From NCBI RefSeq assembly GCF_054482525.1, contig NZ_CM137006.1: DNA of 64,000 nucleotides; one strand, written 5' to 3'. Position 1 is the stretch's first letter. Each line of letters begins with the position of its first letter. This document shows positions 59,720 through 61,071 of this stretch, one piece after another. The notes beneath the pieces were generated by a model. The model ran no database searches. It was not told the origin of the DNA and was given only the letters and a program-made list of their open reading frames with translations. Both the position numbers and the translations under genes were made by a program.

Positions 59720-61071
59720 TTATTTCCAGATACGTAATTCATCGTCCGTTGTAACTTCTTTACTGGCTTTCATTTTCGGCAGTGAAAACGCATACCAGTC
59801 GATATTACGGGTCACAAACATCATGCCGGCCAGCGCCACCACCAGCACACTGGTTCCCAACAACAGCGCGCTATCGGCAGAGTTGAGCAGTCCCCACATC
59901 ACACCATCCAGCAACAACAGCGCGAGGGTAAACAACATGCTGTTGCACCAACCTTTCAATACCGCCTGCAAATAAATACCGTTCATTATCGCCCCAATCA
60001 GACTGGCGATTATCCATGCCACGGTAAAACCGGTATGTTCAGAAAGCGCCAGCAAGAGCAAATAAAACATCACCAATGAAAGCCCACCAGCAAATATTGC
60101 ATTGGGTGTAAACGTTGCGCGGTGAGCGTTTCAAAAACAAAGAACGCCATAAAAGTCAGTGCAATCAGCAGAATGGCGTACTTAGTCGCCCGGTCAGTTA
60201 ATTGGTATTGATCGGCTGGCGTCGTTACTGCGACGCTAAACGCCGGGAAGTTTTCCCAGCCGGTATCATTGCCTGAAGCAAAACGCTCACCGAGATTATT
60301 AGCAAACCAGCTGCTTTGCCAGTGCGCCTGAAAACCTGACTCGCTAACTTCCCGTTTGGCTGGTAGAAAATCACCTAAAAAACTGGGATGCGGCCAGTTG
60401 CTGGTTAAGGTCATTTCGCTATTACGCCCGCCAGGCACCACAGAAAGATCGCCGGTACCGCTTAAATTCAGGGCCATATTCAGCTTCAGGTTCTGCTTCC
60501 GCCAGTCCCCTTCAGGTAAAGGGATATGCACGCCCTGTCCGCCTTGCTCTAACCCGGTGCCGGGTTCAATGGTCAGCGCCGTTCCGTTAACTTCAGGCGC
60601 TTTCACCACACCAATACCACGCGCATCCCCGACGCTAATCACAATAAATGGCTTGCCTAAGGTGATATTTGGCGCGTTGAGTTCGCTAAGACGCGAAACA
60701 TCGAAATCGGCTTTTAGCGTTAAATCACTGTGCCAGACCTGACCGGTATAAATCCCTATCTTGCGTTCTTCCACGTTCTGATTGCCATCAACCATCAATG
60801 ACTCAGGTAACCAAAAATGGATAAAACTTCGTTTCCGCTCCACGGTTTTATCCTCTTCCTGCACCGTATAAAGCTCGGTCACAGGAATAGCGATGAGCGG
60901 CCCAACGAGTTTTTGCGGCCCGCTGGTACTTTGGCGAATCGCATCTTCCACATCGCTACGGTAATCGGCACGTTCGACAATCACCTGCCGAATCAGCATT
61001 ATCGGAATCAACAACAGCAATACTGCACCAAACAGGGTGGTCATTTTCCAGAACAGGGGGGATTTCAACAT
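59720..61071 (-). pseudogene. creD: inner-membrane protein CreD, reading frame split by an apparent one-base frameshift
   Basis: Two overlapping minus-strand ORFs (60070..61071, 333 aa; 59720..60076, 118 aa) together span 1352 bp, one short of a multiple of three; the N-terminal part ends ...QYLLVGFHW*, and the C-terminal part resumes in another frame as VMFYLLLLALSEH; the break lies at a short A/T run near 60077-60085. Confidence 0.6.

Follow-up and report, generated by a model that had tools for sequence, protein, structure and literature searches.

The creD gene in the stretch of DNA analyzed here (the window, 64,000 nucleotides of contig NZ_CM137006.1) has lost a single G from a run of four. 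An intact creD is one uninterrupted open reading frame (ORF) of ~450 amino acids; here the frame is broken after codon 330. By descent, genomic context and sequence the locus is creD, and as written it encodes no full-length CreD protein. Judging from comparison with related genomes, the deletion is probably a genuine, very recent and strain-private loss-of-function allele. The first-pass annotation of this DNA had offered two readings, a real pseudogene or a mistake of sequencing or assembly at a homopolymer; these are still the only two serious explanations, and the comparison favors mutation.

The creD locus and its single-base lesion

Two ORFs on the minus strand cover the locus (Table 1). 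Their coordinates and translations agree with the first-pass annotation that the upstream frame ends in ...QYLLVGFHW before its stop codon, and that the two frames overlap by 7 nt (60070–60076) and together span 1352 bp. The downstream frame starts (TTG)M-VMFYLLLLALSEH. Both translations match CreD family profiles. In Pfam CreD PF06123 (428 positions, cut-off 23 bits), the 5' fragment aligns with positions 2–332 (349.4 bits, E 3.8e-104) and the 3' fragment with positions 334–428 (106.6 bits, E 1.8e-30). In the NCBIfam CreD equivalog NF008712, they cover positions 2–332 (368.3 bits) and 334–429 (112.8 bits), respectively, the latter falling alone below the cut-off of 275 bits, which is set for the whole protein. 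These consecutive, collinear matches indicate that the two ORFs are one frameshifted gene rather than a chance pair.

The genomic context is that of creD. The same position in related genomes is annotated as a 450-aa "cell envelope integrity protein CreD", and the gene order matches that annotated in PCN033, GPEC856 and SCU-102, with creD being the last gene of creABCD and adjoining the convergent arcA gene (58945–59661, plus strand).

Comparison with creD of related strains, which had been proposed as a check in the first pass, locates the lesion. The relatives carry intact genes of 1353 bp, and the window's gene is short by one G. In an alignment with the annotated creD of PCN033, this missing G is the single difference over 1353 nt, and beyond the lesion the 3' fragment matches PCN033 creD base for base. 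The shortened run covers the last base of codon 329 (Val329) and codon 330 (Gly330). The missing base and the collinear profile matches bear out the earlier claim that creD is split by a one-base frameshift. That claim had also placed the lost base in the neighboring A/T run, where adding one base was expected to restore a frame of ~450 amino acids. The frame is indeed restored, as a base inserted anywhere in 60073–60130 gives a stop-free reading, but the site has to be corrected: the AAA/TTT run beside the lesion (60079–60081) is unchanged with respect to the relatives, the lost base is a G of GGGG, and only a G recreates the sequence of the other genomes.

Table 1. Features of the disrupted creD locus and its surroundings (window coordinates)
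Feature	Position	Strand	Description
Whole creD locus	59720..61071	-	1352 bp (intact relatives 1353 bp); disrupted gene for inner-membrane protein CreD
creD 5' fragment ORF	60070..61071	-	333 aa; native residues 1-330 followed by F-H-W and stop
creD 3' fragment ORF	59720..60076	-	118 aa from TTG in the original frame; native residues 333-450
Lesion, one-base deletion	60083..60085	-	coding GGG (CCC on the plus strand) where every relative has GGGG (CCCC)
Premature TGA stop	60070..60072	-	three codons past the shift; overlaps an ATG of the downstream frame (TGATG)
creC, sensor kinase	61129..62553	-	intact, 474 aa; exact protein in many public assemblies
GC-rich hairpin, likely bidirectional terminator	59681..59708		between convergent creD and arcA; 12-bp stem, 6 GC pairs, flanking A and T runs
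Perfect cre-tag-like direct repeat TTCACCGTCACTTCAC	61133..61148	-	3' end of creC, ~60 nt upstream of the creD start

Predicted consequences for CreD and its operon

A hydropathy scan of intact CreD locates six hydrophobic segments, at roughly residues 4–35, 294–319, 323–347, 348–372, 370–398 and 398–422, that is, one N-terminal segment and five C-terminal ones. The ~265-residue region between segments 1 and 2 is periplasmic by the published inner-membrane assignment of CreD. The frameshift falls inside segment 3. Translation would proceed normally through Gly330, add Phe-His-Trp and then stop. The 333-aa product retains the N-terminal anchor, the region between segments 1 and 2, segment 2 and the first third of segment 3; what is missing, the rest of the membrane segments plus the C-terminal tail, amounts to 120 residues (27% of the protein). 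Because the shift lies within segment 3 and the 120 C-terminal residues are gone, CreD function is probably lost, the truncated protein being most likely non-functional or degraded.

CreD activity could in principle persist as a functional split gene with both halves produced, by restart at the TTG/GTG/ATG cluster that overlaps the stop, or by recoding through a –1 ribosomal slip at GGC-UUU, which would give back wild-type CreD. The stop codon and the ATG overlap (TGATG), three possible start codons are packed into 9 nt, and a weak Shine-Dalgarno-like GGUGGG is found 6 nt upstream of the TTG, but its pairing with the anti-Shine-Dalgarno sequence (–5.4 kcal/mol) is matched by 16% of the positions inside creD and compares with –8.7 for the native start. 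On a reading of the sequence, a –1 slip after GGC would lead to CUU UCA UUG and thus to the native Leu-Ser-Leu, but there is no slippery heptamer of the form X XXY YYZ in GTG GGC TTT CAT TGG TGA. The split also halves a hydrophobic segment, so neither piece contains a complete helix 3, and the arrangement is conserved in no other genome, which argues that it is not maintained by selection. We thus regard a functional split gene or recoding as very improbable. Programmed ribosomal frameshifting, a separate candidate, was rejected, as the site has no slippery heptamer and all relatives are in frame.

Upstream of creD, TTCACnnnnnnTTCAC at 61133–61148 is the only cre-tag match in the window without a mismatch. 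With at most one mismatch allowed, the window contains 4 matches where chance predicts 4.35, so that the repeat is suggestive only by its position and its perfect match. Such repeats are described as the CreB-binding cre tag (Avison 2001, Cariss 2008), and the one here is a candidate site for CreBC-dependent expression of creD. The regulatory region of creD looks intact. With creA, creB, creC, the putative cre tag and the terminator untouched, the deletion would affect nothing else. As creD comes last in the operon, directly ahead of the terminator, a polar effect is not to be expected. An Rfam scan of the whole window returned no match at or near creD. Four matches elsewhere pass the gathering score, namely the Thr operon leader (57289–57408), the sok antitoxin RNA of the hokC/mokC locus (40660–40812), the ES003 sRNA (22395–22447) and tpke11 (43546–43623), all of which are expected for this region of the E. 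coli chromosome.

Only a mild phenotype is predicted: cells would be viable and would lack the CreD-dependent part of the CreBC response, for example better growth in beta-lactams under CreBC activation. That creD is dispensable, as the first-pass annotation held, is supported by the viability of creD deletion mutants of MG1655 and CTX6 (10.1101/615310). Its second statement on function, a link of creD to colicin E2 tolerance, is of historical value only. The name cet goes back to Drury and Buxton 1988, as cited in PMC4689548. The bioRxiv study 10.1101/615310 and Cariss et al. 2010, which it cites, trace the Cet phenotype to a creC mutation that activates the kinase and works through YieJ/CbrC, and not to CreD or its loss. 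Colicin tolerance is thus not predicted for a creD frameshift. Stenotrophomonas maltophilia lacking creD has defects in division and envelope integrity and an induced sigma-E response (PMC4689548).

Rarity of the deletion and sequence quality of the window

We searched the complete RefSeq E. coli genomes, a set without the source assembly, for the deleted form. A whole-gene search matched 5,423 of 5,426 genomes, and the best matches all span 1353 bp. A 71-nt query over the lesion found a match in 5,421 genomes, none at 100% identity, and the listed matches span 72 nt; a 35-nt query able to seed only on the deleted form returned no match in the complete E. coli genomes. Of the 5,421 complete E. 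coli genomes in which the segment occurs, 0 have the deleted form. A very large gene index has no record of the exact 333-aa product; as this index seemingly lacks the source assembly as well, the negative says nothing about the reads of the source itself. The deleted 38-mer has no match in species-representative genomes or JGI metagenomes, negatives that carry almost no weight as the intact 39-mer matches there just 1 and 2 times, respectively. A look-up of the window's CreC protein retrieved nine loci. The creD genes of loci L005, L006, L008 and L012 equal the window's creD plus one G, and over 8,871 nt the deleted base is all that distinguishes L008 (OZ041018.1) from the window.

The population data bear directly on phase-variable switching of creD by slipped-strand mispairing at the G run. 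Such switching would change a homopolymer length inside a coding region, as seen here, but the run measures 4 nt, or 3 nt once deleted, and offers no long hypermutable repeat. Known contingency tracts are far longer than 4 nt. With GGGG in 5,421 genomes and GGG in none, the population is fixed at one length, and the likelihood of such switching is next to nil. A contingency locus as such is effectively refuted, its OFF length being found in 0 of 5,421 genomes.

Rarity is also what a consensus error would produce, in which case creD of the isolate would in truth have GGGG and encode all 450 aa, one G having been missed in base-calling or polishing. The variant is a singleton, absent from the complete genomes and from the exact-protein index, and the deletion lies in a homopolymer of a gene otherwise identical to intact alleles. 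Homopolymer deletions are the commonest residual error on long-read and flow-based platforms, whereas short-read assemblies seldom miscount a run of 4 nt. We consider such an error unlikely, though to be taken seriously, and the remainder of the window speaks against it.

We compared the whole 64-kb window with three relatives, GPEC856 and the near-identical PCN033 and SCU-102. Five one-base indels separate it from GPEC856 (~99.1–99.2% identity), the creD deletion included; the other four (11371, 26189, 31208 and 40364) are intergenic and correspond to no gap against PCN033 or SCU-102. PCN033 differs by 10 SNPs and two one-base indels over ~62.7 kb, the second indel being an A8/A7 difference at 31606; GPEC856 and SCU-102 have the window's length there, which makes this difference private to PCN033. 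Over ~62.7 kb, SCU-102 differs by 9 SNPs, and its sole indel is the creD deletion. In the ~62.7 kb compared with PCN033 and SCU-102, no indel other than the creD deletion is thus private to the window, and it is private with GPEC856 included as well. The window contains no ambiguous bases. Its homopolymers comprise 606 runs of 4 nt and 307 of at least 5 nt (32 of these of at least 7 nt). Every run except that in creD matches at least one relative in length, including all 307 longer ones, which are far more error-prone on long-read and flow-based platforms. A technology prone to homopolymer errors would strike longer runs first, which is not seen here; this shifts the balance towards a real mutation without proving it.

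The A8 run (window 31599–31606; A7 in PCN033) lies ~23 nt upstream of the espX1 start. The difference near the espX1 promoter is either a length polymorphism or an assembly error in PCN033.

Four SNPs are private to the window (plus strand, 2359 G>A, 6014 C>T, 8031 G>A and 9886 G>T). Three are synonymous and one changes CaiT (A425S), and none occurs in the three closest complete genomes. An exact look-up of the CaiT A425S protein returned only four contigs, all from unrelated lineages with 97–98% DNA identity. The private SNPs imply that the source isolate belongs to the PCN033/SCU-102 clone but has diverged independently, and in an isolate with four such SNPs one private indel beside them is unremarkable. 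All four SNPs fall within 7.5 kb of the 64 kb (probability under uniform placement ~0.006), and this cluster may reflect a short recombination patch or local mutational clustering.

Two insertion elements were found in the window. A 1337-bp element of the IS186/IS421 type (40986–42322) lies between dnaJ and mokC/sok, with terminal inverted repeats (CATAAGCGCTAACTTAAGGGTTG) and a target duplication rich in G/C. PCN033 and SCU-102 lack it, but the more distant GPEC856 has it at this position, under the annotation IS421 family transposase. K-12 also carries IS186 at the dnaJ-mokC/sok site, and the shared position would suggest an insertion hot spot or import by recombination. The second element, 1432 bp of the IS3 family (15827–17258), is located between caiE and caiF. 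It occupies the same site in PCN033 and SCU-102, annotated as IS1397, is absent from GPEC856, and is inserted within a REP-like palindromic unit (GCCGGATAAG...CATCCGGC).

The yaaU gene (3341–4735, minus strand) is flagged as an "internal stop" pseudogene in PCN033 and SCU-102, and the window has the sequence of PCN033 there. The "internal" stop at codon 444 coincides with the end of the intact 443-aa YaaU of GPEC856; the flag thus seems to come from an annotation drawn too long, not from a genuine lesion.

Origin and significance of the creD allele

Our preferred explanation is that one G was lost from the GGGG run, as would be the usual product of replication slippage, leaving a strain-private null allele. 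Several observations support a genuine mutation. Apart from the missing base, creD is identical to the intact alleles of PCN033, SCU-102 and several draft genomes. The window is otherwise clean of private indels, and it carries private SNPs as well as the IS186/IS421-type element missing from PCN033 and SCU-102. Loss of creD is tolerated in the laboratory, where deletion mutants are viable (10.1101/615310), and in nature, where a related genome carries a nonsense allele. Counting against a mutation, a singleton homopolymer undercall is the classic signature of a consensus error, and the allele has no support in any other public sequence. If the lesion is real, it must be very young, as we see no further decay in creD.

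The nonsense allele is found in the near-identical L004 (GCA_024766655.1, JAMJLH010000001.1), in which positions 7483–8835 correspond to window 59720–61071. A G-to-A change at gene nucleotide 1058 (nucleotide 1057 of the window's gene) creates a stop at codon 353 (W353*), and the annotation lists no creD product in the interval from creC to arcA. The two null alleles share the same creD background and are both cut within the C-terminal membrane bundle, but one is a nonsense mutation at codon 353 and the other a frameshift at codon 330; they are independent events. Both truncations, 23 codons apart in one clone, keep the N-terminal anchor, the periplasmic domain and segment 2. That C-terminal truncation of CreD is recurrently selected in this E. 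coli clone would be a long shot, with two observations to draw on. Were it true, losing or remodeling the membrane bundle might be advantageous, or truncated CreD might keep or gain an activity, possibly together with a restarted C-terminal fragment.

Over-production of CreD in E. coli improves growth in beta-lactams, and the CreBC regulon is poorly understood. If the deletion is real, the isolate is a natural creD null and as such mildly useful for work on this regulon. If it is an error, annotators should flag one miscalled base instead of passing on two hypothetical proteins. The locus is best annotated as one frameshifted creD and not as two genes, and beyond annotation the finding is of little importance.

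The locus has the properties of E. coli creD (cet): the same synteny robA-creA-creB-creC-creD, convergent with arcA; a cre-tag-like repeat upstream and a shared terminator downstream; and a nucleotide sequence identical to that of PCN033 and SCU-102 but for one base. It differs in its broken frame, where all 5,421 complete genomes compared have an in-frame GGGG. Whether mutation or error, the lesion is an ordinary homopolymer frameshift. In homopolymer frameshift pseudogenes and in consensus errors of this kind, a one-base deletion in a short run likewise splits a conserved gene into two adjacent ORFs with matches to successive stretches of a single family profile. Nothing distinguishes the creD lesion from these in kind; it stands out only as the sole event of this sort in an otherwise clean 64-kb window.
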